IMG/VR virus record: IMGVR_UViG_3300037840_000439
Length of the DNA stretch: 64,000 nt
From: an uncultured virus (IMG/VR IMGVR_UViG_3300037840_000439)
Taxonomy: Duplodnaviria; Heunggongvirae; Uroviricota; Caudoviricetes
Reading direction: 5' to 3' (one strand)
In this document: piece after piece, positions 6,222 to 64,000 of the stretch
Layout: each line of letters opens with the position of its first letter
How positions within the stretch are numbered: the first letter of the stretch is position 1
Notes under the pieces: generated by a model
What the model was told of the DNA's origin: nothing
What the model saw: the letters and a program-made list of their open reading frames with translations, nothing else
Databases searched by the model: none
Translations under genes and position numbers: made by a program

Positions 6222-7700
6222 CTAAGGATAAGGCCCGTAAGATGTTGGCGCCGTAGGTGCTCCAGACGCCTCTGGGGCTACCTGAGCCTGAGCACCATAC
6301 TGAGCCACGAATGCCGCCGAAGGGTCGGGCGCGCCCGGGGCGCGGGGTCGATGCGTGTGTTTGCCCACGATCGCTTCGAGCCGCTGCGGATGGGCCAGCG
6401 GTGCGCCGGGGATCTCGTGGCTCATGCTGGCCAGTGCTGCACGAGCGACGGGCTCCGCGATGTTGAGCTGCTTGGCCAGGTCGAAGGACGAGAGCTTGGC
6501 GAGCTGCGGCGATGCAACGAGCTTCGCGACAGCATCGTGTGCCAGATTGGCTGCATCTGCTGGCAGCGCCTTCTGGACGTCCGCAATGGCACCCGGCAGG
6601 AGGTTTTGGGTCGGATTGCTCAGAGCAGAGAGGATCTTGCCTTGGTCCGGCATGAGCGCGTGCGCTGCCGCGTACCCCTTGTCTTGGAGATGCTGGGCGG
6701 TTGAGATAGCGAGCCCCGAGTCGAACGCATGCGCGACATTCGGGGGAAGCGCGTCCTTCGCGGCTGCGATCTGCGCAAGAACCGGAGCTCCCTGGGCAGC
6801 GAGTTGGTTACCCATTGCTGCACCCTGCTGAAGGGCTGCGGTCGCCGCAGGACCCACGGCTGCGCCCACGACGGCTCCGGCTGCGGACAGAATGTCCTTC
6901 GGGAGCGGTTTGCCCTGCGCGAGGTTTCCAGCAGCTGTCAAAGCTGCCGTTGCTTGAGGGGGGACGCCTGCGACGTTGGATGCGATCTTGGCCTTGTCGA
7001 CCAGGTACCCGCCGGTCGTGTGCCACGCGTCCTTGAACGCTTGACCGACGTTCTTACCGTGCAGCAAATCGTCAGCGCCGCCCAGAACAAGCGTCTTCAC
7101 GAAGAACGCCGGATTGGCTTGCTGGTAGCCCTTCGTGTACGCCGTTGCGAGGCCGTTGAGCACCTTGTTCTTGGCGAGGTCGGTGCCGATTTTTTTGCCC
7201 ACTTTCGTGTGTCCAGCCGCAGCGGCGGCGGATGCAAGAATGACGGCCGCACCAGCCCCCGGGATGAACGCGAGGGGACCGATCTTCACGGCGTCCTTTG
7301 CGATCTTGGCGACGCCCTTCCAGGGTTGGAACTTGAAGCCGACGCCGACCCCATCAAGACCTGGGAGCCGAAGACCTTCGTATCGAAACACGCCACTCAC
7401 CCCGACGCTGAAATTGGGGTCCAGGGCTGCTGCTCGGCCCAGCAGAACGCTTGCAGCCATAGGATAGGTGGGGAGGAGCGTCTGCGCGAACGCGCGGAGC
7501 TTTGCCGGATCGGACTCTTGGCCTACGGCGACTAGGACGGCGTTCTCCGTAGCCTGGGGGAGGCTTGCGTCGAACGGACGTTTGGATGCCGCGATGATGA
7601 GAGCCGAGGGTCCGTCGAGGCCGGACCGGTCGAGGCCGGACCGGTCGTAGTTGAATCCGCCCACTTTGCAACGGCCTAGGAAGATTTGTTCGTGCAGCAT
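6222..7700 (-). CDS. Ala/Gly-rich putative virion/membrane protein with leader motif
   Basis: Start reassigned to MLHEQIFLGRCKVGGF (TAGGAT 7 nt upstream; avoids overlap with the phosphatase); hydrophobic segment IGPLAFIPGAGAAVILA. Confidence 0.65.
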   Translation of the reverse strand: MLHEQIFLGRCKVGGFNYDRSGLDRSGLDGPSALIIAASKRPFDASLPQATENAVLVAVGQESDPAKLRAFAQTLLPTYPMAASVLLGRAAALDPNFSVGVSGVFRYEGLRLPGLDGVGVGFKFQPWKGVAKIAKDAVKIGPLAFIPGAGAAVILASAAAAAGHTKVGKKIGTDLAKNKVLNGLATAYTKGYQQANPAFFVKTLVLGGADDLLHGKNVGQAFKDAWHTTGGYLVDKAKIASNVAGVPPQATAALTAAGNLAQGKPLPKDILSAAGAVVGAAVGPAATAALQQGAAMGNQLAAQGAPVLAQIAAAKDALPPNVAHAFDSGLAISTAQHLQDKGYAAAHALMPDQGKILSALSNPTQNLLPGAIADVQKALPADAANLAHDAVAKLVASPQLAKLSSFDLAKQLNIAEPVARAALASMSHEIPGAPLAHPQRLEAIVGKHTHRPRAPGAPDPSAAFVAQYGAQAQVAPEASGAPTAPTSYGPYP

Positions 7701-7705
7701 GCGTT

Positions 7706-8113
7706 CTATCCTACCACCATGGCGTGAAAATGGGGGTTCGTTAGGCCGTTGCGAGCCATGCGGATCCGTTGTGCCGCCTCTCGACCGGGCAGACCCAGGT
7801 CGCGAAGTGCGAGACCCACGAGAACCCCGGAACGGTTGCGCCCCTGCATGCATGTGACTAGTACGCGCTCCCTGTGACGAACACGGTCGGCAATTTCGCG
7901 CGCGGTTCGGCGGATGAGATGGCGATCCAACTTGCTCGGTGGCGGGCCACTGTCGTCGAGCGGGACGCGGATCACGTGGTAGCCCGGTAGATCGGGGTCC
8001 TGGTACTCCATCGCGGCGAGTACGATCACGTCGAACGGAAGACCGCGGACACCGGGCGGCGGAGCACTGCCCTGAGCAAGCCAGGGACCTGGCATGAGGT
8101 ATGTGTAGCTCAT
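7706..8113 (-). CDS. Dual-specificity/PTP-family phosphatase
   Basis: VLVTCMQGRNRS (Cx5R) and acid loop PLDD; ATG 8113 overlaps the upstream stop (ATGA). Confidence 0.85.
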   Translation of the reverse strand: MSYTYLMPGPWLAQGSAPPPGVRGLPFDVIVLAAMEYQDPDLPGYHVIRVPLDDSGPPPSKLDRHLIRRTAREIADRVRHRERVLVTCMQGRNRSGVLVGLALRDLGLPGREAAQRIRMARNGLTNPHFHAMVVG

Positions 8114-8352
8114 CGGAGCTTGGCCCAAACCGCGAGCCCGGTCGCAACGCCAGCGAGGCTTGAGAAAACCCCACGTGGCGGAAGAGAGAACCCAGCCCAC
8201 ATGGCCAGCTGTGTTGCGGTCAGACCCGCGCTGATTCCCGCGAGCCATGCGGGTAGGAATACGCCTCCGGGTTCCGGTTTGCCAAGATTCAGATCCCCGA
8301 GCGAAAAACCGGTCACCCGACAACCACCATACGAGATATTCTCCAAGCTCAT
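8110..8352 (-). CDS. Small membrane protein with leader motif
   Basis: MSLENISYGGCRVTGFSLGD followed by two hydrophobic segments; ATGA-coupled at both ends. Confidence 0.7.
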   Translation of the reverse strand: MSLENISYGGCRVTGFSLGDLNLGKPEPGGVFLPAWLAGISAGLTATQLAMWAGFSLPPRGVFSSLAGVATGLAVWAKLR

Positions 8353-8556: not shown

Positions 8557-8607
8557 ATACCGTGTCGATACCGTGTCGATTGTTATCGTACGTTTAGTAC
8601 CGTGTCG
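8557..8607. repeat. Three copies of TACCGTGTCG (two in tandem)
   Basis: ATACCGTGTCG at 8557 and 8568, TACCGTGTCG at 8598, just upstream of gene 8349..8546. Confidence 0.6.
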
Positions 8608-8956
8608 TAAATGAGTCGAGCTTGGGGCTCGACGGCCAGGCGAGCTTTCGCACGAGCTTGTCCACGCAAGCAGCAACTGTCTTGTTGGGCGGGTTGGTGG
8701 TGACCGTGACACCAACCGCTCGTCCCAGCTTGATTGCAACGTGGACTGTGACTTCGGTGCCGTCGGGTGTCCCACAGACCGTCAGGAAGCTCCCGACGTT
8801 GCTCATGGGCGCCGCGAGCTGGGCGTCGGTTAGGTCAGGGATCGGTGCTTTGCTCATGTCCATTTGCTGGACGTTGGCAGCGATGGCGGCTTCGTAGCTA
8901 GCGCCGCTCAGTCCGAAACCTGGGACACGACGGCTGCCAAGAGAGATACGTTCCAT
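8594..8956 (-). CDS. Leader motif fused to AgmX/PglI-C (TonB-C-like) myxobacterial domain
   Basis: MERISLGSRRVPGFGLSG, then VAIKLGRAVGVTVTTNPPNKTVAACVDKLVRKLAWPSSPKLDSFTTRY with paired Cys. Confidence 0.6.
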   Translation of the reverse strand: MERISLGSRRVPGFGLSGASYEAAIAANVQQMDMSKAPIPDLTDAQLAAPMSNVGSFLTVCGTPDGTEVTVHVAIKLGRAVGVTVTTNPPNKTVAACVDKLVRKLAWPSSPKLDSFTTRY

Positions 8957-9192: not shown

Positions 9193-10083
9193 TTACCTCT
9201 TTCGTCGTTTTTGCCGCCTCGGTGTTGGCGTTCGTGGCTTACGTGGTGGCTTGGGGTCGAGCGAAACAAGCACATAGATGAGAGCAGCAAATAGTCCAGC
9301 CGTCGCGACAGTACGAACGATTGGTGAGGCGTACCATGGGGCAGGTGGCGGTGGATTGATTGGCTCCAATCGAACCCAGCGCCTTGGCTGTGGCAATGGG
9401 GGTGGTTCTTCAACTTCCGGCGGCGGGTCTATGAAGACAACCTGCGCCGGTTTGGGCTTCTTCGGTTCTTGCGGCACAGCTCCGGCGGCCGATAGCTCCG
9501 GTCGCCGGGTGGTCGTGATCTCCGGAATCGATGGCGCTCCCGGCTTCGTGCGCGCAATACCCTGTCCCGCACGCACCCGTGCGCCATCTGCAACCATTGT
9601 CATGCCAACGTCGGCATACAGATAACGGGTTCCGTCGTCGCCCGTGAGTATGATTGACGTGCGCCCCTTGGCGTCAATTATCGTCTCAATAACGCCGTCA
9701 GCGAGCGCCTTGACGACAGCGCCTTGGGGCGGCGTGGTGTACATCATGGCAAAGTCGGCAACTTCTTCGGGAAGCGGCCGAGGCGGCGTGATGTACGTCA
9801 GAGTCAGGTTAGCGGCTTCGTCTTCGCATTCCTCGAACGGAATTACCCACTGCGGCAGCCACGCTGGTGGTACGTAGAGATCACTAGGAATGAAGACAGC
9901 GTTGCCGCCGCCACGAGAGACAGGAGGGGGCCGCGGTGGACGAGGTGGCGACGGCGGAACAGGCGGTACGGGCGCCGTCCCCGGGAAGGGAATCGCGTCC
10001 TTGTCCCACCAACCGGCGACGTTGCCGGAGACGTCCCACCACGTGGTCGCAAAGCCGTCGGTGTCAAAGTCGCCGAGCGGCAT
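9193..10083 (-). CDS. Pro-rich protein with degenerate M23-like domain and C-terminal TM anchor
   Basis: VKALADGVI...DGTRYLYAD...VADGARVRAGQGIA (M23/hybrid-motif pattern without HxH); TM VATAGLFAALIYVLV and basic tail. Confidence 0.6.
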   Translation of the reverse strand: MPLGDFDTDGFATTWWDVSGNVAGWWDKDAIPFPGTAPVPPVPPSPPRPPRPPPVSRGGGNAVFIPSDLYVPPAWLPQWVIPFEECEDEAANLTLTYITPPRPLPEEVADFAMMYTTPPQGAVVKALADGVIETIIDAKGRTSIILTGDDGTRYLYADVGMTMVADGARVRAGQGIARTKPGAPSIPEITTTRRPELSAAGAVPQEPKKPKPAQVVFIDPPPEVEEPPPLPQPRRWVRLEPINPPPPAPWYASPIVRTVATAGLFAALIYVLVSLDPKPPRKPRTPTPRRQKRRKR

Positions 10084-20227: not shown

Positions 20228-20241
20228 AGATTGGTCCTTCT

Positions 20242-21759: not shown

Positions 21760-21802
21760 GGGTCCGAGCGTACTACATGATCCCTACTCTAACCACCGCG
21801 TT

Positions 21803-32110: not shown

Positions 32111-33487
32111 CTACCTCCTATACTCACGAAGCTCTTTTGTAGCCGGCTTCGCACCCTTCTTCTTCATCGTCACCACCGCAACGATGCCACCAACGACGGC
32201 CACAGCACCCGCCCCGATGCCGATCTTCATGCCGGTGCTGAGTCCCTCCTCCTTCTTCTCGTGCCCCTTCTCCTTCTTCTCGTGCTCGGGCGGCGCGTCT
32301 CCTGACGGTGCTGCCGGAGGCGCCGGAGGTGCAGCCGCGGGGGTTGCTGAAGCATCGGGTGTTGCGGCTGGTGCAGCAGCGGCCGGAGCTGCGGGAGCCG
32401 CAGCCGGAGCTGCATCGGTTGCATCCGGGACATCACCCCAGTCGTCCACAGCCGGCGGCTCCGGCGGTGCGACAAAACCGTACGGAAGCTGCGGTGCCAC
32501 GAAGACGGGCGGCGCGGGTCGACGGCGATGTTCGTACGGGGGCTCCGGGCGATAGCCATGAGGCGGCTCGGGGCGATGTCCGAAGCGAGGCTCGGGACGA
32601 CGAGCGAGAGAAGCTGCCGGACGTCGGTATTCCATTTTTCCTTCTCCGTGTGAGCCGTATGAGCCGTGTGGGCCGAGGTTGAAGTACGCACCGACCCCAG
32701 CCTTGTGATGCTTGTGCGCTTTCGGCACGCTGGCGCTCGATGCGCCCGTGCATGCATCCGGCACCACCAAGCCGCCCATGGCGGAGGCTAGTGCCGCAGC
32801 GACGGTCACCTCGTATCCCCCGGTCCCGATCGGAATCGGTTTCCCGGGGTTCGCGTCGTTCCAAGCTTTCTTGAACTTGTGCACTGCCACGTTCACCGGA
32901 GATCCCGGCTGCCGAACGCTCTGGCAGTAGTTCGGATCCGAGTCCATGGCGATGACGGCATCAGAGGCAATATCGGCAAGACCACCGGTGGCGTCATCGC
33001 TTATGACACCCGCCGAGGTCTCGGTATACGTCCTTGGGTGACGCGTGAACGTCATCATGCGAGACCCACCACACGCAGACGGTGCGTCAGTTCGCAGCAC
33101 AGAAGTCAGTGCCGCAGCCACCGTGGCTTCGTAGTTTCCGGTCCCTACGGGCAGTGGCTTACCGGGATTGGCAGCGTTCCATGCCTGCTTGAAGGCATGA
33201 ACCGCTACGTTCGTGGGCGTCCCGGGACGCTTGACGCTCTCGCAGTAGCTCGCATCGGCATTCAGAACGTCGAATGCCTTGGCCGCCGTCATCCCGACAT
33301 CCGAAATGCGTGGACCCGGCACACGAACGATCTCCCCAGGCACGAGAGCGCTCCACGTGCGTATACCCGACACCACGACGGTCCCCTTGCCGGGGTTGGC
33401 CGCGATGAGGTCAGCGAACGGAACACCCAACTGGCTCGCGATCTTCGACGGCGAGTCTCCGGACTGAACCGTGTAGTCGTAATTCAT
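32111..33487 (-). CDS. LysM protein with two internal repeats and C-terminal TM anchor
   Basis: YTVQSGDSPSKIA...LIAANP; repeat YCxSVxxPGxPxNVAVHxFKxAWNxANPGKPxPxGTGxYE twice; IGIGAGAVAVVGGIVAVV-MKKK. Start reassigned to 33487. Confidence 0.85.
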   Translation of the reverse strand: MNYDYTVQSGDSPSKIASQLGVPFADLIAANPGKGTVVVSGIRTWSALVPGEIVRVPGPRISDVGMTAAKAFDVLNADASYCESVKRPGTPTNVAVHAFKQAWNAANPGKPLPVGTGNYEATVAAALTSVLRTDAPSACGGSRMMTFTRHPRTYTETSAGVISDDATGGLADIASDAVIAMDSDPNYCQSVRQPGSPVNVAVHKFKKAWNDANPGKPIPIGTGGYEVTVAAALASAMGGLVVPDACTGASSASVPKAHKHHKAGVGAYFNLGPHGSYGSHGEGKMEYRRPAASLARRPEPRFGHRPEPPHGYRPEPPYEHRRRPAPPVFVAPQLPYGFVAPPEPPAVDDWGDVPDATDAAPAAAPAAPAAAAPAATPDASATPAAAPPAPPAAPSGDAPPEHEKKEKGHEKKEEGLSTGMKIGIGAGAVAVVGGIVAVVTMKKKGAKPATKELREYRR

Positions 33488-33503
33488 AGGCGCACCTTGT
33501 AGC

Positions 33504-35524: not shown

Positions 35525-36121
35525 TCACGACGGGTTGATCAGAATCGCTAGATCGGGGCTATCAATGCCCAGTTTTCGCAATCGATGCCGGCATTCTTCG
35601 TCACTGAGGTCGCTTAAATTCTTGTCAAGCAACTGCATCCCCAAAAATGAGAGTGTTACCCCATAGGGGACGCTCACAGGCGTTTGCGTGAGCACTGCAC
35701 TAACCTTCACGTTACTTTGCTTCGCTAGCGGCCACCCCTCCGGCCACGTTGCCGCGAGCACGTCGAACAGATTGCCCAAATCGGTAAATTCGTCATTTAT
35801 CGAATATTTGGGCCCGCCGTAGACATCGAGCTGGATACCAACTCCAGTCTGTCCTGACTGCTTCAGTTGGTTGAAGTAGAGACTCTGAAACGGTGATCCT
35901 GGGAAGCTGTTCTGTTGAAACAGGTTGTACGAGACGCGCGTGATGATCGTCTCCATCGTGAGGTTGTTGTCGAAGCTCTGCACGATTGGCGGAGCGTTGA
36001 CGACCGACGAGGAGAACTGAATCGGAACGTCGACCACGAACGGCACACGCGGGACGCCAACGACTAGCCCATAGGCGAACTTGGGCGCGTATAGGGCTAG
36101 GTTACGAATGTCGATGTCCAT
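35525..36121 (-). CDS. Putative minor capsid protein
   Basis: Strong SD GAGGAG; alternating hydrophobic strands; follows the capsid candidate. Confidence 0.5.
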   Translation of the reverse strand: MDIDIRNLALYAPKFAYGLVVGVPRVPFVVDVPIQFSSSVVNAPPIVQSFDNNLTMETIITRVSYNLFQQNSFPGSPFQSLYFNQLKQSGQTGVGIQLDVYGGPKYSINDEFTDLGNLFDVLAATWPEGWPLAKQSNVKVSAVLTQTPVSVPYGVTLSFLGMQLLDKNLSDLSDEECRHRLRKLGIDSPDLAILINPS

Positions 36122-36213: not shown

Positions 36214-37530
36214 TTAGACCTGGGGAGTACCACCGCTTGACATGATTTGCGGCATCGAACTCTGGCAGTATGCCTTCCATCCGCCCGGCATCTCCCATCC
36301 CTTGATCTTGATCGCGAGCTTGAGCACGCCGCCCTTGAAGACCTCACGCGTAGTGTTCACCACCTGCTGCACGTATACTGGCGTGGCGTCGAGCGTCTGC
36401 TCCAGCATGGTCGAGTTGCCGATCCCGAGAGCTGCTGCCGCCACCACGCCCGTGACAGCACCGGGTGCCGTGAGCGTGGCAACGTTGACGTCCGGGACAA
36501 TGTTGACTCCGAGCGGTTCATTCGTGATCGTGAGCGCCTCGAGCATCGACGCCTGGTGAACGGCGTCCTGTGCGACGAAGATCATGCCGACGGGGATGCC
36601 GCGCTCGATGAAGCACGGGCTCTCGATCGGCCGGTACATCTGACCCTTGCAGCCATACCCCTGCCACCGGAGACCGCCCCAGGTGACGGGCGCGAGATCG
36701 AAGTCACGCGTCGGGTGGAAGATACCGATGTTCGACGTGGTGAGCGCCCCAGCGGCCTGAGTGACGCTGCCGACGCGACGGAAGTTCACGGGAAGGAAGA
36801 TCGTGGCCGATCCCTTCGTGCGATAGGTCGCATTGGCCGTCGCAACGAACTCGATGACGGGGACTTCGCTCGTGCCGGACGCGAGCGCGTCGGCGAACGA
36901 TCCGAAGTAGCTGATGTCGGCAGCAGACTCGTTCAGGACGAGTTCACGCTGCGACGTCTTCCACTGGAACTGGTAGGCGTTGATGAAGTTCCAGCCGGCG
37001 CGCCACACATCCGCACCCCACTCGAACACAGCGGGGGAAACGATGCTGGAGTTGGAACCGATGCCGCCGAACGCACCACCAGCCTCGTCGTTGAACGTCC
37101 ACACGTCCGGGCTGGGAGGCGCGTAGGTGCCCACCGTGGTGGGGGCCGTAAACGCGTTGCCGATGGTCGAGAACGACATCGGCTCGCAGAACACGTGCAC
37201 ACCCACGCCCTGGGCGAGGATGTCCGTTTGGAGGATGCCGTTGATGAGGAACGTCGAGTCGATCGACTGAACGCCGGGGACCGAGGAACTGCCCGAGAGC
37301 AGGTTCACCGTGTCGCCGAACGTGGTGTTTGCCTCGTTCATCGTCAGCGGCAATGGGATCGTCCAAATCACTTCTTCGATGACCGGGACATTGCCGAACG
37401 AGCAGCGGAGACACTTCTCCGCAGCCGCGAGCGTTCCAGGGGCTTCGCCGAGTCCGAAGGGGACCCTCTTGACGGCCGGCCGGTTGTTTCCGTATCGCGC
37501 GTTCTGTGATGCAACGATGCTCTTTGCCAT
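36214..37530 (-). CDS. Candidate major capsid protein
   Basis: 438 aa, beta-rich, no TM, SD AGGAG, hairpins on both sides, N-terminal KRVPFGLGE motif. The ORF is solid; the function is inferred from context. Confidence 0.5.
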   Translation of the reverse strand: MAKSIVASQNARYGNNRPAVKRVPFGLGEAPGTLAAAEKCLRCSFGNVPVIEEVIWTIPLPLTMNEANTTFGDTVNLLSGSSSVPGVQSIDSTFLINGILQTDILAQGVGVHVFCEPMSFSTIGNAFTAPTTVGTYAPPSPDVWTFNDEAGGAFGGIGSNSSIVSPAVFEWGADVWRAGWNFINAYQFQWKTSQRELVLNESAADISYFGSFADALASGTSEVPVIEFVATANATYRTKGSATIFLPVNFRRVGSVTQAAGALTTSNIGIFHPTRDFDLAPVTWGGLRWQGYGCKGQMYRPIESPCFIERGIPVGMIFVAQDAVHQASMLEALTITNEPLGVNIVPDVNVATLTAPGAVTGVVAAAALGIGNSTMLEQTLDATPVYVQQVVNTTREVFKGGVLKLAIKIKGWEMPGGWKAYCQSSMPQIMSSGGTPQV

Positions 37531-37671: not shown

Positions 37672-40050
37672 TTACTTGCGAGGTGCGATGTCGAAGAGGG
37701 ACTCTTCCTGGGAGTCGCCGATGAAGCCCAGGTACTTGTTGTCATCCCCACAGCCACAGTCACTGCTGGCGACGGGCTGCGGACCAGGACCGGGGCTTGT
37801 GCCCGGACCAGGCGCGTAGGACGGCGGCCCGATGGGATCGGGTGTCGGGACCGCTGCTGCCTGGAACGGAGCAGGTGCGGGTGCGGCGTCAGGTGCAGGG
37901 GCTGCGTTCTGCTGATCCACGAACGCTTGCGTGGGATCAGGATCCGAGATCACGCCGGTCACGGGGTTCTGGGTGGGGCCCGTGTATAGATACGGGTGCG
38001 AGCTGTGCGGGTGCGCGAGGCACCAGGAGTGAAGTTGTTCGGCCGTGTACGAGGGGTACATGGTCTTCGCGCGCAACATACAGTGGTGGTGGTGGTGACC
38101 GGGCGCGGAAGGCGCCTGGAACCGACCCCACTGCCGGCTCATGGCCACCGAGTGGGCATAGCCACCCGGCTGGAACTGGGGATGCGCACCGTGCCACCGG
38201 TTGATCAGCGGGGCTTGGGGATGGTTGTTGTACCGACCCGTGGGAGGCATGGGGCGGAACCCAAGGGGGCCGTCCACGCCTGTCTGCTTGCGCAACGCTT
38301 GCGCCGCAGTCGGGTAGGTCTCGTTGTCGCTGACACCCGCTCCACGACGGAGCGCCTGGACAGCATCCGGGTAGGGCGAGTCAGCAGCGAGCGCGAACGG
38401 CCCCACGTCGGGCCCGGAGAGGGCACCCTCCGCAGCGGGCTTCTGATCTTTGTTCAGCTTGGCGGCAACTTCGGCCGGATAGAGCCGAGCAATGACGCTT
38501 CCCTTGAGCTTCTCGGGGTCGTCGCCGTCCTTGTGCGCGCCAAGCATCGGCATGAGCACGTTGGTCCAGAGGAGCTGGAACACCTTGACGCCGGCACCGA
38601 CCGCATAGCTCTCCATCGAGCTACGAGCGAGCGGGTTCTTGACGTACACCGAGACGATGGCGGGGAGAAGAACCTGGCCCACGGCGTTCGCGATCCGAAG
38701 AGCGTGCGGAGACGACGCCACGTTGAGAGCGTTCGCGAGCGTACCTGCACCGCCGGACGTGAACTTGTCCTTCGGCGCCTTCTTGCCGTTCGGGTTATAG
38801 GTCGCCAGGAAGCGATCCACGCCGTCGGAGATCGTGAAACCTGCACCGGCAACGGCAACGCAGATCGCGATCTTTCCAATCTTTGCGCCCATGGCGGAGA
38901 GTTTGCCGGCGCGTGCGTAGTGGCGGCGCCGACGCGATTTCACCATCGAGGTCTCACGCGCCCTGTGGTGCTTGCGGCGCTTGTGGCGGCGCGGAGCGGC
39001 GACAGACAGCTCGCGAACACGACGCGTCTTGCGGCGCTTGTGGCGACGGGGAGCGGCCAGAGACAGCTCACGCGTCCTGTGCGACTTCTTCTTGCGTGCG
39101 TGACCCTTCTTGGCCGCCTTGCGGTGACCAGGAGTGTTGCCGTACCACGCCCTCACCGAGCGACGACGGGACTTCCTGCGCTTCGCGGCAACCTTGCGCG
39201 GTGCAGCGGCGACTGCCGCACGAACACGACGAACCCTCCGCCGACGCTTGGCTTGAACCACCGGAGTCGCTGCGCGAACACGACGCGCCTTGCGACGACG
39301 CTTTGCAGCCACCTGACGGGGAGCCGTCACGGAAGCACGAACACGGCGAGTCTTGCGACGCTTCGCAGCCACTTTGCGCGGTGCAGCGACCGCCGCGCGA
39401 ACGCGACGAGCCTTGCGGCGGCGCGGAGCGGCGACAACGGCCGTGGTCTCGCGAGCTCGGCGAGCCTTGCGCTTGCCCTTCTTGCGCGGGTACATCTTGA
39501 ACCACGCCGGACTACCGAACGCCGGCTTGGCAGACGCAGCAGCCGTGCTGCGGCCCGATGAACGCTTCTTGGTGGTCCGGCGACGCTTCATTGCAGTGTC
39601 TTCCTCTCGTGCGACAACGGCCCGGATGCCCCGGCCTAGGGTGATGGTCCGCTTGACTTTCAAGCCCTTCGGATCGAACTGGCGAATGCGGATGTACTGA
39701 TCGGTGACGTCTGTGACGGTCGACTTGTAGCCGTGGGCAGCAGCCCACTGCTTCGCTTTGGCTTCGGTCCAATCGTTGCGACCAAAGAGAAGCGACTGAA
39801 TCCCCATGGCCGGTCGGCGAGATGCGCTGACACGGGAGCTAACGGGTGCTTGACGGACTGCTTGACGGACCGGAACTTGGACCGGAGCGGACCGCAAGAT
39901 GGGGACGACACCGCGACAGACGGGTGAGGCGACACGAGTGACTGTGCGCGCAGCGACCCGACGTGATTCGCTGAGCGCGTTAAGCCTGTCGTCGTAGAGC
40001 CCCATGTCATTGACTGGGTAAAGTTTTTCGGCACGCCAAAGACGCGTCAA
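37672..40050 (-). CDS. Arg/Lys-rich DNA-condensing core-like protein
   Basis: About 230-aa tract of AAPRxxxxKRRKxRRVRA repeats, hydrophobic middle, Pro-rich tail; the start may be MGLYDD. Confidence 0.7.
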   Translation of the reverse strand: MTRLWRAEKLYPVNDMGLYDDRLNALSESRRVAARTVTRVASPVCRGVVPILRSAPVQVPVRQAVRQAPVSSRVSASRRPAMGIQSLLFGRNDWTEAKAKQWAAAHGYKSTVTDVTDQYIRIRQFDPKGLKVKRTITLGRGIRAVVAREEDTAMKRRRTTKKRSSGRSTAAASAKPAFGSPAWFKMYPRKKGKRKARRARETTAVVAAPRRRKARRVRAAVAAPRKVAAKRRKTRRVRASVTAPRQVAAKRRRKARRVRAATPVVQAKRRRRVRRVRAAVAAAPRKVAAKRRKSRRRSVRAWYGNTPGHRKAAKKGHARKKKSHRTRELSLAAPRRHKRRKTRRVRELSVAAPRRHKRRKHHRARETSMVKSRRRRHYARAGKLSAMGAKIGKIAICVAVAGAGFTISDGVDRFLATYNPNGKKAPKDKFTSGGAGTLANALNVASSPHALRIANAVGQVLLPAIVSVYVKNPLARSSMESYAVGAGVKVFQLLWTNVLMPMLGAHKDGDDPEKLKGSVIARLYPAEVAAKLNKDQKPAAEGALSGPDVGPFALAADSPYPDAVQALRRGAGVSDNETYPTAAQALRKQTGVDGPLGFRPMPPTGRYNNHPQAPLINRWHGAHPQFQPGGYAHSVAMSRQWGRFQAPSAPGHHHHHCMLRAKTMYPSYTAEQLHSWCLAHPHSSHPYLYTGPTQNPVTGVISDPDPTQAFVDQQNAAPAPDAAPAPAPFQAAAVPTPDPIGPPSYAPGPGTSPGPGPQPVASSDCGCGDDNKYLGFIGDSQEESLFDIAPRK

Positions 40051-40482: not shown

Positions 40483-40875
40483 ATGGTCACAGAGTTTTGC
40501 GATGCCGGTACAAGACCAGCACAAATGGATGCGCCCAATGGGCCCGTCTGTGGGTGTGGACGCCCGGCACGACGTGAGAGCGGAAACTGCGGGTTACCTG
40601 TGCGGCAGCCAGTTCTTCTCACGAAGACAACCGTTCTCGAGGGTCACTACGCGTCCGGCGACTGCGAGTGCTTCTGCTTCGACACGCACCATCCGGAACA
40701 CGACCACTATGCTGCACTGAGAACGTGGCTACAGACACATGAGGACGTCACGGATATTCCCGCCGAACTTGTCTACGACACGTGCCTCTACCCCAACGCA
40801 CTTCTACCAGACGGCGTAGAACGCCGTAAAGGTCGGTGGACAATCACCGTGGCCTTCGAGCCGGAGCCGATGTGA
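40483..40875 (+). CDS. Hypothetical Cys-containing protein
   Basis: 130-aa ORF with CGCGRP. Confidence 0.55.
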   Translation: MVTEFCDAGTRPAQMDAPNGPVCGCGRPARRESGNCGLPVRQPVLLTKTTVLEGHYASGDCECFCFDTHHPEHDHYAALRTWLQTHEDVTDIPAELVYDTCLYPNALLPDGVERRKGRWTITVAFEPEPM

Positions 40876-42523
40876 GTCCCGGGTAGCGCAGATCGAACGC
40901 ATCGCCAGCTCCACTCAGATCGCCAGCGGTGATTCCAGTCTTCGCGGACATTCCAACGAAGTCACCAACACCATTTTCTTTCTGCTCTTTACCGGGCTCT
41001 ACCCACCACTCGCGTGAGTGTGGCGCGGTTTGCCCCACGGGATGCAGCGTGGTGCCGTCCATCTTCACCCAGGTGTTCATCTCGTCTTCGAATGCCATAA
41101 ACACGTGGGTTGGCACGTGATGCGGCTCCTTGTGGCTAGAGCCAATGATCATGGCGTTGATGCCGATACACATCATCGCGGCTGCAAGCGTGATGGCACT
41201 ATCATCGCAGTTGCTCACGGTTACATCATGTTCAGGGAGATAGACGTAGTGATCATCTGTTGTAATGTCCCAACACGATACCTTGCGTACAGCGCGCTCA
41301 ACGGATCGCACGAACAGATTCAGTTTGTCCTTATCTCTCTGACCGAGACGCCAAAGAGGATGCTTGCCCACACCGCCGTGTTGTTCCGGCGTTAGCATCT
41401 TCACGCCCATCATCTTGCCATGCATACGATGAAGCACGCGCACCTGGAGCATCAGCGATCGGCTTGTTGTCGAGAAGGTACGGGTCGACACGCCTGTGTT
41501 CTTGGTACTGTCAGCCATCAAACCGCGCAGTGCTGCGCCGGCTGTCTCCTCATCCAAGTTAATGGTTTCCAAGTGTTTGAAACGAGCACGTGATCCGAGT
41601 TCAGAAATTCGTGTTGCCCACGCTCGATCTTTGATGGTGATGTACCGTGAGTGCCATAGCGTCTCGATACCCAGTCGCTCGCAGATCGCCTTGACCTCGT
41701 GTTTCTGCGCCTCCTTGCGCTTTCCATCTCGTCCAGCCACGTAAAAACACACGTGTGGAAGTTCAGGGTTCTTGCTCGCCTTCGTCCACCCATCTGCGAG
41801 TGCGAGCGCTTCTACGTACATTCGGTCAGCATCTACACGACCAGATCCAAATGAGACACGCTTAGGCTGGAGCAACGTGTCGCCTTTACGTAGATCGCTC
41901 ACGCGAATACGCTGATCGAACGATTCAACACGCTTGTAGGCATCTCTGCATTGCACCTGCTCGCATCGACCTCCATGCTTGCATGCTCCCACATAGACAT
42001 GATGATCGGATGTCAAATACATCGTCGAACCGTTGCTCATCTCGATGGCGTCGACTGATAACTCACCCTTCGCCCATTTTTGTTCGACCATGGACCACTT
42101 ATCATGGCCCCAGATCCGGTCGCCGACTTTGATCTCTTCGATCGGAACGAACGCGAAATCGTCGCGAAGTAGCAACGTCCCTTCGGGGAAACAATCGCCA
42201 CCGATGATGCAGAAACCACCATCGTCCAGACACAAGGTCTGATCTGGCGTGGCCATGAACTCACCCATCACCGGATCGGCGATGTACGGCACCTTCTTCC
42301 GGTAAGCGTCGAGAATGGCTTGCGCCTTCTGCCGGCGACCTCCCCTCGACACGCCGGCCTTGTCGAGTACCTGCGTGGCCCACGCACGAAGTCGAGGTGA
42401 CATCCGTGCTTTCCACGCGCGCTCCGCGCATTCCTTCAGCGACAGGTGTGCGCCCTTGGCGCCAGCGGGATGCGTTCGAGCGTCAGTCACCACGCCTTCG
42501 ACGGGCTTGTCAAGCAGGGCCAT
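40844..42523 (-). CDS. Transglutaminase-like cysteine enzyme interrupted by an intein
   Basis: The spliced product reads GGD|CDD; His in THVF, Asp in KMDGT; 231 aa after splicing. Confidence 0.85.
   Translation of the reverse strand: MALLDKPVEGVVTDARTHPAGAKGAHLSLKECAERAWKARMSPRLRAWATQVLDKAGVSRGGRRQKAQAILDAYRKKVPYIADPVMGEFMATPDQTLCLDDGGFCIIGGDCFPEGTLLLRDDFAFVPIEEIKVGDRIWGHDKWSMVEQKWAKGELSVDAIEMSNGSTMYLTSDHHVYVGACKHGGRCEQVQCRDAYKRVESFDQRIRVSDLRKGDTLLQPKRVSFGSGRVDADRMYVEALALADGWTKASKNPELPHVCFYVAGRDGKRKEAQKHEVKAICERLGIETLWHSRYITIKDRAWATRISELGSRARFKHLETINLDEETAGAALRGLMADSTKNTGVSTRTFSTTSRSLMLQVRVLHRMHGKMMGVKMLTPEQHGGVGKHPLWRLGQRDKDKLNLFVRSVERAVRKVSCWDITTDDHYVYLPEHDVTVSNCDDSAITLAAAMMCIGINAMIIGSSHKEPHHVPTHVFMAFEDEMNTWVKMDGTTLHPVGQTAPHSREWWVEPGKEQKENGVGDFVGMSAKTGITAGDLSGAGDAFDLRYPGLTSAPARRPR
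41210..42193 (-). mobile_element. Intein (328 aa) with degenerate LAGLIDADG endonuclease
   Basis: Block A CFPEGTLL, block B LTSDH, ALALADG and LRGLMADS, block F CWDITT, C-terminus VTVSN followed by Cys+1. Confidence 0.9.
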
Positions 42524-48921: not shown

Positions 48922-48961
48922 TTCGCGTAGGACTGTAGCTCGAACATCACCTTCCTTGTAC

Positions 48962-49741: not shown

Positions 49742-49751
49742 GGGGGGTCTC

Positions 49752-50786: not shown

Positions 50787-50788
50787 AG

Positions 50789-51475: not shown

Positions 51476-51476
51476 G

Positions 51477-54354: not shown

Positions 54355-54365
54355 AGTCTCTACCC

Positions 54366-61350: not shown

Positions 61351-61572
61351 ATGAACCCGCCGACCCATCAACCTACACCACCAACCAATCCCCCGAACCG
61401 TTCCAGGTTCGTTGGCTTCGGCGACCAGGAAATCCGGGCCCCCGAGGCGTCTCATACTCCATCGACCCCATCTCCGTGGCGGGTCGCGCTGGTCACAACG
61501 GTTCTCGGCGCCGCCACAGGCTGGGTCATAGACGAGGTCGTGCGGGTCATCCGCGGGAAGAAGAAACAATGA
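61351..61572 (+). CDS. Small membrane protein
   Basis: RFVGFGD; hydrophobic VALVTTVLGAATGWVI; basic tail; TACAAT 8 nt upstream. Confidence 0.7.
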   Translation: MNPPTHQPTPPTNPPNRSRFVGFGDQEIRAPEASHTPSTPSPWRVALVTTVLGAATGWVIDEVVRVIRGKKKQ

Positions 61573-61895
61573 TTCAGAACGGTTCCTTTGGGATGATCCA
61601 GCGAAACGGCCGCCCCGTAAAAGGCTTCAGCCTGGGCAAGCCCCCGAGCTTCGGCCTCGGCGATCAGTGCCCTGCCGCACTTCCGAGCGGAGACGCCGCA
61701 ATGCGCCTCATGCAAGGGAAAAAGGGGGCATTTCTCGACGTAGCCGGCACGATGCTGGCGCGCAGCGCGCTCATAGCCAGCGGCCTCGCGGTTGCCGGCT
61801 TCCGTGGTACCCAGCTCCTCAAGGGGACGCTGGCGGCGGGGATGGCGGTGGAGACCTTCGTGCTCGCGTGGGCCTACAAGAACAGGGAGTCATGA
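61569..61895 (+). CDS. Membrane protein with leader motif
   Basis: MIQRNGRPVKGFSLGKPPSFGLGD; two hydrophobic segments; ATGA overlap. Confidence 0.75.
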   Translation: MIQNGSFGMIQRNGRPVKGFSLGKPPSFGLGDQCPAALPSGDAAMRLMQGKKGAFLDVAGTMLARSALIASGLAVAGFRGTQLLKGTLAAGMAVETFVLAWAYKNRES

Positions 61896-62131
61896 TGAAC
61901 CTTCGATACAACGGTCGGCAAGTTGGGCTCAGTGACGGTTTCAGCGACAAGCTCAAAGAATACGAAGATGATGTCAAGGGAGACATCCAAATCGTCAAGG
62001 ATACTCCCGGCTGGCTTAGAGTCGGCTTGGTGGCAACAGGTATGGTCCTTGGCAGCGGCCTCGTCTACGTCCTCATGCGGAACGAGGTATTGGAGACAAC
62101 GACCCACCATTACATACGGCCGGGGAAGTGA
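61892..62131 (+). CDS. Small membrane protein with shortened leader
   Basis: MMNLRYNGRQVGLSD; TM VGLVATGMVLGSGLVYVLM. Confidence 0.75.
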   Translation: MMNLRYNGRQVGLSDGFSDKLKEYEDDVKGDIQIVKDTPGWLRVGLVATGMVLGSGLVYVLMRNEVLETTTHHYIRPGK

Positions 62132-62358
62132 TGGAACGGATCAAGATTGGCGGACGGCCCGTAGCCGGGTTCGGCGTCGGTCTCGACCTCGACGAGATCG
62201 CGAATAGGTACGACCCTCTCTACAAATGCCACAACGACAAGATCGTCAAGCTCAAGGTAGTCGGTGCGGTCGTTGCTACCGCGCTGGTGACCGCAGGGAC
62301 CATCCTCTACATTTTGCCGCTCATGAAGACTGAGTACGAACTTCGAAAGAGGACGTGA
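62128..62358 (+). CDS. Small membrane protein with leader motif
   Basis: MMERIKIGGRPVAGFGVG; TM VVGAVVATALVTAGTILYIL. Confidence 0.8.
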   Translation: MMERIKIGGRPVAGFGVGLDLDEIANRYDPLYKCHNDKIVKLKVVGAVVATALVTAGTILYILPLMKTEYELRKRT

Positions 62359-63065
62359 TGGAACAGATCAGGTTTGCCGGGCGGCGAGTAGCGGGGTTCG
62401 GGGTTGGGGCTTGGTACAGCACCAACCCAATGGAGCAAGTAGAGGCTCTAGTCAAAGACTCCGACATGCGGATGCAGCAACTGACGGACGCATTCAATGC
62501 GTTCTCTCCGAAGTGGAGTGCTACCAACACGGCCACGTACAACGATTTCTTGGCTGACTACACCAGCCTTTTGTCACGTTACGCCATCGCGAAGATCCTA
62601 GCGCCTGCCGCGACTGGATTCTGGGCAACGCCGACGGATATCGAAAAGGCAACTACCGCACTTACGAAAGCATTCCGAGCCGGCGCTCCTGGTGAACAGA
62701 CGAAAGGCGATTGGGCCGATCTGGTTGAACGTCTTCGTCTCGCCCAGAAAGCAACGGGTGTTCCAGAAATGGTTGATCAGCCACCAACTGCACTTAAGAA
62801 TGTACAGAACGAAGAAAATGTCGCAGACAATTTCTACAAGGCAACGGCGAAATACGATATCCCCGCGCAACTGACGGGCGAGATGGCGCCACATGCACCT
62901 GTCCAGGCAGCTCTTGATGCGGCAGCTGCGGCAGCCAAAGCGGCTGCTGACGCGGGTAAGACGATCACCGACGCAGCCAAATGGTTCGACGACCACAAGA
63001 CCGGCATCGCGATCGGCGCAACCGTTCTAGTTGGCGGCATTCTTTACGCGATCGTCCGACGATGA
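62355..63065 (+). CDS. Helical protein with leader motif and C-terminal TM anchor
   Basis: MMEQIRFAGRRVAGFGVG; IAIGATVLVGGILYAIV-RR. Confidence 0.8.
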   Translation: MMEQIRFAGRRVAGFGVGAWYSTNPMEQVEALVKDSDMRMQQLTDAFNAFSPKWSATNTATYNDFLADYTSLLSRYAIAKILAPAATGFWATPTDIEKATTALTKAFRAGAPGEQTKGDWADLVERLRLAQKATGVPEMVDQPPTALKNVQNEENVADNFYKATAKYDIPAQLTGEMAPHAPVQAALDAAAAAAKAAADAGKTITDAAKWFDDHKTGIAIGATVLVGGILYAIVRR

Positions 63066-64000
63066 TCTCGTTCGGGGGTCAATCCGTAAGGCTTGGCGGC
63101 CGACCTGTCTGCGGCTTCTCTCTCGGTGTCGACGACAGCGACGTCGACTCGCTTGTCGCCGCGAAGCTCGCCGAAGGTGGTTATTCAGACGTCTCGGCAT
63201 ACCAACGAGCGAAGGGTCTCGCGGTCGACGGCGTAGCGGGCCACGACACGCTCACCGCGATGGGCTACGGCTACCTGTACGATCTCGCTGGACAGGGGAA
63301 GCTCAAACCAGGACAGACGCAGCTCGACACAAAGAAGACGCCGCTCACGCCCGAAAAAGCGGCACAGGCGCTTAGCACTGGTTACCAGGCGATTGCAGGC
63401 ACGGCGCCAACACCTGAAATTCTCGCGCTTCTCATCGCACAATCTGCCAGTGAGACCACCAACTGGCGAGACATCTCCAACTACAACTTCGCCGGAATCA
63501 AGGCGTCACCTGGCGACAAATATGTGCAGGCCATGGTGGATGGCAATCGAGGAAATCGTCATGTGTACGCATTTGCGGCGTACAAAACTCCGGCTGAAGG
63601 CGCCGAGAAGTACATCAGTCTGCTCAAGGCGCATGGACGCGAACCATGGTGGGAAGGACTCCAAACCGGCGACCCTGAGACATACGTGAACGCGCTTGTG
63701 TCGATTCCTGGCGCGCACTACTTCGAGGCTCCTACGGAGAAATATCTTGCCAGCGTTCGGGCTGGTGTTGCTCGATTCGCTGACTTGGCGCGGCAGTACG
63801 CAACAAGCAATGCAGCTGACACCTTCTACAAGAAGGCTGCTCCGTACGACGTCGTCGCGCAAGTAACCGGTAAGCAGGCACCCAGTGCACCTGTCAAGGT
63901 TGCCGTCAACGTAGCTAAGACTACGTTCGAAGAAGTGGTCAAGGCTCAAGGGTGGGTCGACAAGAACAAGACGTGGATAGCGGTCGGAGCTACGGTCTTG
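63062..64000 (+). CDS. Leader + PG-binding + GH73 (FlgJ-like) muramidase/glucosaminidase, runs off the right edge
   Basis: Not in the track. Manual translation MISFGGQSVRLGGRPVCGFSLG...AYQRAKGLAVDGVAGHDTL...LIAQSASET...NYNFAGIKA...FAAYKTPAEGAEKYISLL...WIAVGATVL. Confidence 0.8.
   Translation, partial: MISFGGQSVRLGGRPVCGFSLGVDDSDVDSLVAAKLAEGGYSDVSAYQRAKGLAVDGVAGHDTLTAMGYGYLYDLAGQGKLKPGQTQLDTKKTPLTPEKAAQALSTGYQAIAGTAPTPEILALLIAQSASETTNWRDISNYNFAGIKASPGDKYVQAMVDGNRGNRHVYAFAAYKTPAEGAEKYISLLKAHGREPWWEGLQTGDPETYVNALVSIPGAHYFEAPTEKYLASVRAGVARFADLARQYATSNAADTFYKKAAPYDVVAQVTGKQAPSAPVKVAVNVAKTTFEEVVKAQGWVDKNKTWIAVGATVL

Follow-up and report, generated by a model that had tools for sequence, protein, structure and literature searches.

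The capsid-targeting sequence of the phage T4 internal proteins works comparably to the role proposed for the peptide tag considered here, as does the A17-D13-I7 system of vaccinia virus. In the available text on NO16 GP18 and PM2 P3 (PMC13552765), both are small, tail-anchored minor capsid proteins with a predicted C-terminal transmembrane (TM) helix, whose N-terminal part is ordered and lodged in pockets of the capsomers at the inner capsid surface. Here we analyse a 64,000-nucleotide stretch of DNA (the window) from an uncultured virus (IMG/VR IMGVR_UViG_3300037840_000439), a member of an uncultivated family with genomes of 80-125 kb, in which an earlier note had ascribed to about nine unrelated proteins a shared, virus-specific address label.

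A peptide tag on otherwise unrelated proteins

Seven to ten proteins of the window, otherwise unrelated, carry a motif of 16 residues, E-x-[IV]-[SR]-x-[GNA]-G-R-x-V-x-G-F-[GSA]-[LV]-G, at a frequency well over chance expectation. All the peptides quoted in the earlier note are present where it placed them, and the carriers are as follows:

6222..7700, minus strand: protein A, 492 amino acids; tag weak and doubtful (residues 4-19, nt 7644-7691); neither a Pfam or PHROG family nor a C-terminal anchor
8110..8352, minus strand: protein B, 80 amino acids; tag at residues 4-19 (nt 8296-8343); hydrophobic segment at the C-terminal end, with KLR as the tail
8594..8956, minus strand: protein C, 120 amino acids; tag at residues 2-17 (nt 8906-8953), directly after the ATG; no membrane helix detected
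33504..34358, minus strand: protein D, 284 amino acids; internal tag at residues 93-108 (nt 34035-34082)
61351..61572, plus strand: protein J, 73 amino acids; degenerate tag, second half only (RFVGFGD), then a TM helix and a tail ending in RGKKKQ
61569..61895, plus strand: protein E, 108 amino acids; tag at residues 8-23 (nt 61590-61637), followed by hydrophobic segments at the C-terminal end
61892..62131, plus strand: protein F, 79 amino acids; weak tag that keeps the first half only and lacks one residue ahead of G-L; TM helix at residues 46-62
62131..62358, plus strand: protein G, 75 amino acids; tag at residues 2-17 (nt 62134-62181), followed by a TM helix and basic tail
62358..63065, plus strand: protein H, 235 amino acids; tag at residues 2-17 (nt 62361-62408); TM helix at residues 218-234, then RR
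63062..64000, plus strand: protein I, incomplete at the window end; tag at residues 7-22 (nt 63080-63127), followed by PG_binding_1 (PF01471, 25.7 bits, cut-off 23) and a glucosaminidase-like domain (PF01832, 25.9 bits, below the cut-off of 30.2)

In leave-one-out scoring of the six-frame translation, all eight sites ranked first among non-training positions (15.8-33.4 bits). The best scores of 40 shuffled windows averaged about 9 bits and reached 13.7-18.2 at most; only the site in protein A (7670-, 15.8 bits) fell below the shuffled maximum. An independent tag model, trained on 21 tags that all came from related viruses, upheld seven of the nine main sites (H 25.7, B 23.8, G 23.0, C 18.5, E 17.1, I 17.0 and D 13.0 bits), but scored F (61892+, 3.6 bits) and A (7700-, 1.8 bits) as weak. 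Protein J (61351+), previously listed as a weaker match, is marginal by this measure (1.7 bits); it resembles tagged ORFs of the relatives G001 and G002, and other relatives sharing its TM helix and tail carry the full tag. The loose pattern [RCK].V.GF has ten six-frame matches in the window, eight of which are tags; the other two (11343- and 25808+) are unrelated.

The tag is real and selected at the protein level. Identity among the eight copies is 0.59, 0.64 and 0.37 at the first, second and third codon positions, and identical residues share a codon in only 83 of 209 pairs; third positions are thus free to vary while the peptide is kept, which argues for selection on protein rather than DNA. 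G12-F13 is invariant in all 29 tags, which points to purifying selection acting on the peptide. With the window tags only as its source, a matrix yielded 31 matches in 23 of 35 related loci, and all eight complete close relatives match the tag model, with 3-8 matches apiece. The suggested co-occurrence with homologues of the genes at 36214..37530 and 40844..42523 holds in all eight. Viruses with capsid proteins no more than 65-76% identical still have the peptide in common. Two distant relatives have no tag, yet keep the capsid and enzyme genes; in the distant relative G006 both genes are present with zero tag model matches.

Six of the seven robust tags in the window start 1-9 codons past the ATG, the seventh being that of D, from residue 93 of 284. 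More widely, 37 of 53 non-redundant tags lie -2 to +6 codons from a start codon, and of 18 database proteins that were called independently, 17 have the tag onset within the first nine residues. The same starts are called in two near-identical database versions of B (P0006 and P0007) and in an exact 75-residue copy of G (P0009); the E family is also conserved in relatives (for example, P0003, P0008 and P0011). Protein D consists of a conserved N-terminal domain of 60-100 residues, the tag, a helical domain, a TM helix and a basic tail. Its tag is truly internal, since a 17-member orthologue alignment (A5) spans the N-terminal domain. That the tag is internal in this conserved family had escaped the earlier note.

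The tag is closely associated with a membrane anchor, made up of a helix at the C-terminal end and a basic tail behind it. A C-terminal TM helix occurs in 42 of 48 complete tagged ORFs versus 37 of 426 untagged called ORFs (Fisher p = 1.3e-31). In the window, helix and tail are found in seven of the ten carriers (B, D, E, F, G, H and J), in line with the original description; C (robust tag) and A (weak tag) lack a C-terminal anchor, and I is truncated by the window end. Two further proteins are informative here:

9193..10083, minus strand: M23-peptidase-like protein (PF01551, 26.9 bits, below the cut-off of 28.7); C-terminal TM helix and +11 basic tail, no tag match
32111..33598, minus strand: LysM protein (PF01476); C-terminal TM helix and basic tail

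Because the M23-like protein is anchored but untagged, the anchor also occurs without the tag, and cases of this kind indicate that the tag is neither necessary nor sufficient for anchoring. In the LysM protein a degenerate tag-like stretch can be seen by eye past the LysM domain, and its relative in L026, a 561-residue LysM ORF, has a scoring tag at the corresponding place (residue 50). The internal tags of the D family and of this relative imply that a free N-terminus is not required, and a cleavage site fits them at least as well as an N-terminal address.

That the cargo is unrelated was borne out by comparison after masking of the tags: H and I resemble each other (44% over 70 amino acids, the H C-terminus), which makes them partial paralogues, and outside this pair no two tagged proteins matched at E < 0.01. 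Among the cargo domains proposed earlier, PG_binding_1 on I exceeds its cut-off, but the GH73 (glucosaminidase-like) assignment is sub-threshold and the AgmX-like domain found no Pfam match in support.

The capsid module and an intein-bearing enzyme

The remaining genes that bear on the tag lie on the minus strand:

34591..35499, minus strand: conserved capsid-module protein, 302 amino acids, directly upstream of D; no Pfam or PHROG family
35525..36121, minus strand: conserved capsid-module protein, 198 amino acids
36214..37530, minus strand: presumed major capsid protein, 438 amino acids
37672..40050, minus strand: long ORF between the enzyme and capsid genes, whose translation suggests a protamine-like product
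40844..42523, minus strand: intein-interrupted enzyme of the transglutaminase fold, with a Cys-His-Asp triad

The capsid candidate matches 32 IMG/VR loci at 45-76% identity. Its AF2 model is poor (pLDDT about 55), its jelly-roll fold matches are weak (Z 5-5.8, a range rated common by the search tool), and its Atlas features score 0.84-0.88 to jelly-roll capsids, so that a jelly-roll capsid and an internal membrane are inferences. No terminase, portal or HK97-type matches, nor any tailed-phage genes, were found in the window or in the scanned ORFs of the complete relative G001, which encodes a HerA/DUF87 ATPase. Together with the jelly-roll-like matches, this agrees with a jelly-roll virus that has a membrane inside its capsid: the virus is apparently a tailless bacterial virus, its family probably has a jelly-roll capsid protein and its particle probably contains a membrane.

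The N-terminal arm of the capsid candidate (R-V-P-F-G-L-G, residues 22-28, nt 37447-37467) resembles the second half of the tag. As a weaker tag match it stands on conservation, with R22, F25, G26 and G28 each kept in at least 90% of 24 orthologues (alignment A1) and G-L-G kept even in a distant clade, but not on the tag model, with which it has no score; the apparent likeness comprises F-G-L-G plus R/V only. The 35525..36121 protein has G-V-P-R-V-P-F in its N-terminal region, kept in nearly all orthologues listed. Orthologues of this gene, of 34591..35499 (48-63% identical) and of 37672..40050 are present in G001, G002 and G005. The 37672..40050 product, with arginine-/lysine-rich repeats followed by hydrophobic segments, is by its predicted composition a membrane-anchored, protamine-like protein.

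The enzyme is a core gene, found by tblastn in 30 of 35 loci and preceding the capsid gene by two genes in the direction of transcription. Its intein (328 amino acids, nt 41210-42193, with PRP8-intein matches) lies directly before the catalytic cysteine; the intein-free orthologue in G001, about 1 kb shorter here, matches PF01841 (E 1.5e-5, 25.7 bits, cut-off 23). Neither the transglutaminase fold nor the intein had been noticed earlier. C110, H144 and D160 do not vary among 21 orthologues. Inteins also occur at the catalytic cysteine in L009, L020, L024 and L029, marking a highly conserved, important site.

Candidate roles of the tag

We tentatively favour the tag as an address for particle assembly, borne by membrane proteins of a tailless bacterial virus that has a jelly-roll capsid and probably contains a membrane. 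The strand E-x-[IV]-[SR]-x, a tight turn (GG, NG or AG) and the strand R-x-V-x would form a small beta-hairpin, followed by G-F-[GSA]-[LV]-G. The sequence fits such a hairpin in that position 6 is G, N or A and is followed by a G that seldom varies, recalling the tight-turn pairs NG and GG, and the AF2 model of D predicts two strands (94-97 and 100-103) forming a hairpin at pLDDT 35-41, with the rest of the linker unstructured. Carried on a flexible stalk at the protein end opposite the membrane helix, the hairpin would plug into a site common to the capsid-building machinery, a site that the capsid arm probably occupies too. Unrelated cargoes, including cell-wall-binding and cell-wall-cutting proteins for entry, would thereby be recruited into the particle and held between membrane and shell, and the transglutaminase-fold enzyme, which may act on the tag, might trim it later at the invariant G-F.

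A rather unlikely alternative is that the tag serves chiefly for cleavage during maturation, with V-x-G-F-[GSA] recognised by this cysteine enzyme or another protease. Such cutting, akin to adenovirus, ASFV, poxvirus or T4 maturation, would shorten the membrane proteins by their first 13-18 residues and strip off the D N-terminal domain and the capsid arm, and is compatible with earlier docking, as in vaccinia A17. The enzyme's complete triad, its place two genes before the capsid gene, its breadth and its intein-marked cysteine all suit this role, as do the location of internal tags in flexible, Gly-rich linkers, the second, internal tag of a natural read-through fusion (P0004), the persistence of G-L-G in the capsid arm and the resemblance of G12-F13 plus a small residue to a scissile-bond signature. 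By contrast, protease sites are usually shorter than 16 conserved residues in a hairpin-like pattern, and the frequent G6-to-N change speaks against a Gly-Gly-specific enzyme. No clan CE or prohead protease was found in the window, nor any peptidase family other than the transglutaminase core, the M23-like protein and a RadC-like JAB domain; moreover, trimming some 15 residues off a tail-anchored protein would have no obvious purpose unless the tag had acted earlier.

Several tagged genes per genome cluster tightly and co-oriented beside the structural module (61351-64000 in the window, and likewise in G001 and G002). Many carriers are very small, comprising the tag, a short linker and a TM helix. 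These traits, and cell-wall enzymes expected to cooperate at entry, would suit hairpins of different membrane proteins joining in one sheet or small barrel within a single membrane complex, such as a vertex, DNA-delivery or entry device, comparable to the common assembly segment of pilins; we consider this improbable, as it leaves the likeness of the capsid arm unexplained and accommodates the TM-less C and A poorly. An unconventional export or membrane-insertion signal, moving cell-wall-directed N-terminal domains out through the host membrane while the basic tail stays in the cell, is very improbable. The positive-inside rule would place the basic tails in the cytoplasm, suggesting an N-out, C-in topology; PG_binding_1, glucosaminidase-like and LysM cargo work outside the cytoplasm, and an ordinary signal peptide is absent. 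But a crude hydrophobicity and motif check found no hydrophobic region, twin-arginine motif or lipobox in the tag, in agreement with the earlier view that it is not a Sec, Tat or lipoprotein signal; the D tag, behind a conserved domain, is hard to square with an N-terminal signal, and no virus-encoded translocase candidate was seen. Least probable, and already disfavoured, is a tag that has no common function, as a relic of repeated 5' gene-segment duplication and shuffling, or one that acts as a nucleotide sequence in translation initiation. Overlapping or abutting stop and start codons at 61569, 61892, 62128 and 63062, indicating translational coupling within the cluster, and the partial paralogy of H and I would accord with this reading, but the divergent third codon positions, the conservation of the peptide between viruses, the location of the tags at three distant loci on both strands and the invariant G-F do not.

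Comparison with known systems

Literature searches found no description of the tag peptide; the earlier statement that no equivalent had been described was nonetheless overstated, given the comparable T4 capsid-targeting sequence, PM2 P3/NO16 GP18 and the vaccinia A17-D13-I7 system. The type-2 consensus of adenain is (M/I/L)XGX-G, which V-x-G-F-G of the tag resembles, a likeness in favour of cleavage. For the assembly address that we favour, NO16 GP18 and PM2 P3, as far as the available text describes them, provide a precedent for N-terminal docking combined with a C-terminal TM helix.

A 16-residue peptide on otherwise unrelated proteins

An earlier note on this DNA had proposed that about nine unrelated proteins carry a shared leader tag serving capsid docking, or cleavage or crosslinking at maturation, and every tag peptide it quoted is indeed present in the window where it had been placed. 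Eight copies in the window have the pattern E-x-[IV]-[SR]-x-[GNA]-G-R-x-V-x-G-F-[GSA]-[LV]-G in common. In leave-one-out searches, every copy ranked top among the non-training six-frame positions of the window (15.8–33.4 bits), against best scores of about 9 bits on average and a maximum of 13.7–18.2 bits in 40 shuffled windows. The copy at 7670 on the minus strand is the sole one below the shuffled maximum; with that exception the copies beat the shuffled windows, and the tag stands out from chance. A stricter model, trained solely on 21 tags from related viruses, rates seven carriers of the window as robust and three as marginal.

Tag carriers of the window, with scores under the stricter model and presence of a C-terminal membrane helix followed by a tail (anchor)
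6222..7700, minus strand: carrier A, weak (1.8 bits), without anchor
8110..8352, minus strand: carrier B, robust (23.8 bits), anchor
8594..8956, minus strand: carrier C, robust (18.5 bits), without anchor
33504..34358, minus strand: carrier D, robust (13.0 bits), anchor
61351..61572, plus strand: carrier J, weak (1.7 bits), anchor
61569..61895, plus strand: carrier E, robust (17.1 bits), anchor
61892..62131, plus strand: carrier F, weak (3.6 bits), anchor
62131..62358, plus strand: carrier G, robust (23.0 bits), anchor
62358..63065, plus strand: carrier H, robust (25.7 bits), anchor
63062..64000, plus strand: carrier I, robust (17.0 bits), truncated at the window end

An ATG lies 1–9 codons ahead of the tag in six of the seven robust carriers, the tag of D being internal. 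Identity among the copies by codon position is 0.59, 0.64 and 0.37, and of 209 pairs of identical residues, 83 have the same codon; hence conservation lies in the peptide rather than reflecting a nucleotide signal or recent copying, and the codon analysis rules out a DNA- or RNA-level element. A matrix built from the eight tags of the window found 31 matches in 23 of 35 related loci, and G12 and F13 are invariant in an alignment of 29 tags. A start codon is close by (−2 to +6 codons) for 37 of 53 non-redundant tags, and the remaining 16 belong mostly to the D family; in a tag-profile search of databases, the tag starts in the first nine residues of an independently called protein in 17 of 18 cases. 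The tag model matches all eight complete close relatives (3–8 matches per genome) and has no match in two distant relatives, G006 (complete) and G007 (half complete), both of which keep the capsid and enzyme genes. The expected co-occurrence of the tag with these two genes, also a check set beforehand, thus holds throughout the complete close relatives (8/8) but not in the distant ones. A search for a lineage-specific tag in G006 and G007 yielded few tail-anchored open reading frames (ORFs) and, as an anecdote, one 39-residue candidate that starts with M-I-G-L-G, like the capsid arm of that clade. Neither the virus family nor the tag is described in the titles and abstract openings returned by a full-text literature search.

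The cargo is unrelated, as had been proposed: with the tags masked, H and I are the only similar pair. I is the sole carrier with a Pfam domain above the cut-off, PG_binding_1, and its glucosaminidase match fell below the cut-off. What most carriers share beyond the tag is a C-terminal membrane helix with a short, mostly basic tail, found in 42 of 48 complete tagged ORFs versus 37 of 426 untagged called ORFs (Fisher p = 1.3e-31), a conservative contrast because some of the ORFs counted as untagged are spurious and a few have degenerate tags. Carrier D has a conserved N-domain of 60–100 residues ahead of its tag. Its structural model found nothing at E < 0.001 in a fold search of the PDB; two entries at E about 5 presumably contain PG-binding-type domains. 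A fusion of D to the neighbouring 302-aa protein in the related loci L005 and L017 was considered and rejected, as the long upstream extensions do not match that protein. Two ORFs carry two tags in one frame: the database protein P0004 (274 aa), a natural fusion of two neighbouring tagged genes, and a 762-aa ORF of L017 with two D-like modules in tandem. Between the tagged genes B and A lies a small ORF resembling dual-specificity phosphatases (DSPc; 7706-8113, minus strand; 24.5 bits, below the Pfam cut-off of 33.5), which, with its start at 8113, abuts B rather than overlapping it.

The statement that the tag is not a Sec, Tat or lipoprotein signal agrees with a crude test in which the first 45 residues were scanned for a hydrophobic core after a charged N-region, for RRxF[LK] and for a lipobox cysteine. 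No window carrier reached a 10-residue Kyte-Doolittle mean of 2.0 (highest, 1.98), a value attained by 3 of 31 N-terminal tags from all sources, and the twin-arginine motif and lipobox were found in none of the ten carriers. Type IV prepilin (class III) signals combine a G-F cleavage site with a subsequent hydrophobic helix of about 20 residues; this candidate was set aside, since G-F is invariant in the tag, yet 28 of the 31 N-terminal tags have no hydrophobic stretch within 24 residues. The hydrophobic helix and basic cluster at the end of the carriers recall the C-terminal sorting signals LPXTG/sortase, GlyGly-CTERM/rhombosortase and PEP-CTERM/exosortase, in which a transmembrane helix is likewise followed by a basic tail, but the conserved motif of the carriers is at the opposite end of the protein. 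No family-wide signature was established before the C-terminal helix, L-S-T-G being seen by eye in the D and LysM families only, and neither a sortase-type enzyme nor a rhomboid was found in the window. A viral rhomboid as processor of the C-terminal anchors was dropped as a candidate because this intramembrane protease occurs in only two of five related complete genomes, G001 (L040:2768-3379, minus strand) and G004 (C1:89917-90303, minus strand); not being a core gene, it probably lies outside the tag system.

A presumed capsid gene and its conserved module

The presumed capsid gene has 32 relatives (45–76% identity) on IMG/VR contigs as long as 125 kb and three more on metagenome-assembled genome contigs labelled Binatia (two) and Polyangiaceae (one). 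By contrast, tblastn of the capsid protein, D, E and the enzyme against 50,697 GenBank phage records gave no match. Eight close relatives, 84–125 kb long, are classed as complete; direct terminal repeats are annotated in IMG/VR for G008 and G010, and G001 has a 126-bp repeat at both ends. The capsid gene belongs to a conserved module on the minus strand, which reads in transcription order:

217-aa protein
40844..42523, minus strand: transglutaminase-fold enzyme
37672-40050, minus strand: arginine-rich protein, predicted to be membrane-anchored
36214..37530, minus strand: presumed capsid protein, 438 aa
35525..36121, minus strand: 198-aa protein
34591..35499, minus strand: 302-aa protein
33504..34358, minus strand: tagged protein D
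LysM protein

The AlphaFold2 (AF2) model of the capsid protein is poor (pLDDT 55.5). Its best solved matches are beta-sandwiches (Z 4.6–5.8), with the capsid proteins of SPV1, HCIV-1, PRD1 (P3), P23-77 and FLiP mixed with sugar-binding beta-sandwiches. A Foldseek search of viral predicted structures found nothing at E < 0.001, and profiles of the capsid protein and the enzyme found no relative among PDB sequences. Protein atlas features score the capsid protein at 0.84–0.88 to jelly-roll capsids; together with the fold matches they are leads towards a jelly-roll capsid, short of proof. No terminase, portal or HK97-type protein was detected in the window or among the 53 G001 ORFs scanned. The gene content of G001 includes a HerA/DUF87 P-loop protein, a family A DNA polymerase, VapE, SLT and a rhomboid. 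A check for a packaging ATPase found a 653-aa DUF87/HerA-domain protein with a Walker A motif in this complete relative and no conserved ORF with Walker A in the window, which represents only part of a genome.

The divergent cluster of small tagged genes lies beyond a RadC-containing block. The structural module is split by a glycosylation island of about 12 kb (44751-56063) that has no similar DNA in G001, where the flanking genes are about 3 kb apart; it contains glycosyltransferases, methyltransferases, a nucleotide-sugar epimerase and a B12-binding radical SAM enzyme. Elsewhere on the minus strand (18122-31165), three large collagen-repeat proteins (701, 505 and 1125 aa, one with a pectate-lyase-like domain) adjoin large glycosyltransferase/methyltransferase fusion proteins, and may be glycosylated surface fibres. 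The long ORF just before the capsid gene has many Arg/Lys-rich repeats such as A-A-P-R-K-V-A-A-K-R-R-K, then hydrophobic segments, a composition that predicts a membrane-anchored, protamine-like product. A conserved 583-aa protein (56566-58317, minus strand) with about five Gln/Pro-rich repeats of D-P-[LMV]-A-M-M-x-x-M-F-E-x-F-Q has no family match and might be scaffold- or tape-measure-like. Near the left end lie a tyrosine integrase (1278-2639, plus strand) and an RNA ligase (5511-6173, minus strand); the window has no tRNA gene that could mark an integration site.

Shape of the tag, the enzyme and possible functions

Position 6 of the tag is G, N or A and is followed by a mostly invariant G; NG and GG favour tight beta-turns. 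In the AF2 model of D, the tag forms two short strands (94–97 and 100–103, at a pLDDT of only 35–41) within an unstructured linker, adjoined by a confident helical domain. The N-terminal arm of the capsid protein carries R-V-P-F-G-L-G, in which R22, F25, G26 and G28 are each retained by 90% or more of 24 orthologues; the distant clade has M-I-G-L-G at the same place, and the 198-aa protein contains G-V-P-R-V-P-F. The likenesses of the capsid arm and the 198-aa protein to the tag are short and have no score with the tag model.

The transglutaminase-fold enzyme matches PF01841 above the cut-off in its intein-free G001 orthologue, and its Cys-His-Asp triad (C110, H144 and D160) is invariant in 21 orthologues. 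A C-terminal G-D-F-V-G (residues 191–195 in G001), nearly invariant in the same set, lies in a variable tail and could, speculatively, be a pseudo-substrate or self-processing site. In the window, an intein of 328 residues (41210-42193, minus strand) directly precedes the catalytic cysteine; the enzymes of L009, L020, L024 and L029 are interrupted at this residue too, whereas most relatives, including G001, are without the intein. Co-folding of the transglutaminase domain (G001 orthologue residues 1–186, with an alignment of enzyme orthologues, as a stand-in for the intein-split window gene) with the N-terminal 42 residues of protein G (with its own alignment) scored 0.03 and 0.02 (mark, 0.32), a result obtained without controls that counts neither for nor against binding.

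The reading that we tentatively favour is that the tag serves as an address or anchor label: carried on a flexible stalk, a hairpin would dock the tail-anchored proteins onto a site of the capsid machinery, and the capsid arm would use the same docking site. The main rival, in which the transglutaminase-fold enzyme would cleave at the tag during maturation, is compatible with docking but seems to us rather unlikely: it is supported by the internal tags, by the invariant G-F and by P0004 as a read-through fusion, whereas the length of 16 residues and the change from G to N at the turn point to a structural element. We give a distinctly smaller chance to the tag as a means of hetero-oligomerisation of membrane proteins, and regard an unconventional export signal as very improbable and the absence of any common function as marginally more so.

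The address label can also be imagined in a bolder form that we consider doubtful. The tag would be a copy of the capsid N-arm used as a portable plug; carriers with a C-terminal anchor would be woven into the lattice lying between the shell and the membrane, and the intein-guarded enzyme would cut or lock them at G-F, all this as part of a general particle-addressing code with lineage-specific versions across undescribed large tailless bacterial viruses. Were the tag an address label even in the simpler sense, it would provide a simple sequence rule for the particle proteins of bacterial viruses that form a large group, so far uncultivated and undescribed, and would name likely entry enzymes among these proteins, and a short peptide could load foreign proteins into such particles.

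Comparison with known systems

The closest solved precedents for docking are P3 of PM2 and GP18 of NO16, minor capsid proteins from internal-membrane phages of the Vinavirales. Both are small, tail-anchored by a predicted C-terminal membrane helix, and have an ordered N-terminal part set into capsomer pockets, by which they link or organise the shell and the membrane (PMC13552765). The tagged proteins B, E, F, G and J share this architecture of a small protein with a C-terminal helix, but P3 and GP18 constitute a single protein family, in contrast to a portable tag on many unrelated cargoes. Searches for kinship by tblastn against GenBank phage records gave no match for protein E (E 0.1) or D (0.01). 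The genomes also differ in size, at 80–125 kb here compared with about 10 kb in PM2/NO16-type phages.

The capsid-targeting sequence (CTS) of phage T4 is, like the tag, a short N-terminal peptide common to otherwise unrelated proteins: it loads internal proteins into the particle during assembly, after which the gp21 prohead protease cleaves it off. In T4, a tailed phage with the HK97 fold, the CTS binds a scaffold core and the cargo is soluble, whereas the carriers described here, putatively virion proteins too, are mostly membrane-anchored. A gp21-type prohead protease and an HK97-type head module were absent from Pfam and PHROG searches of 140 window ORFs of at least 120 aa, 63 selected ORFs and 53 G001 ORFs. 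Docking and cutting are combined, as they might be here, in vaccinia virus, where the N-terminal tail of A17 binds the double-jelly-roll scaffold D13 and is then cut by the I7 cysteine protease at a small-residue site. That eukaryotic virus uses one membrane protein, an AG-X site and a clan CE protease, as opposed to many carriers, another motif and a transglutaminase-fold enzyme.

Adenoviruses, which have jelly-roll capsids, mark several unrelated virion precursors for one viral cysteine protease with the short, Gly-containing sites (M/I/L)XGG-X and (M/I/L)XGX-G. The tag segment V10-x-G12-F13-[GSA]14 fits the latter save at P4, here V/A/T/L/C, whereas I-S-x-G-G is out of register with the former and G6 is often N or A; the tag is also longer, at 16 residues, and mostly N-terminal. 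A sequence-profile search found no clan CE Peptidase_C5-like (adenain) gene in the window or the G001 ORFs scanned. The viral enzyme, with its transglutaminase core and Cys-His-Asp triad, resembles LapG, a bacterial transglutaminase-like Cys-His-Asp proteinase (BTLCP) that removes an N-terminal portion from its substrate; LapG acts in the periplasm, on a giant adhesin, and at a di-alanine motif, which is absent here. The tag would join a known class of shared particle-targeting or maturation signals, with a putative function, and, if it is an address label, the logic of common targeting or maturation signals known from T4, adenovirus and poxviruses would reach the membrane proteins of bacterial jelly-roll-type viruses.
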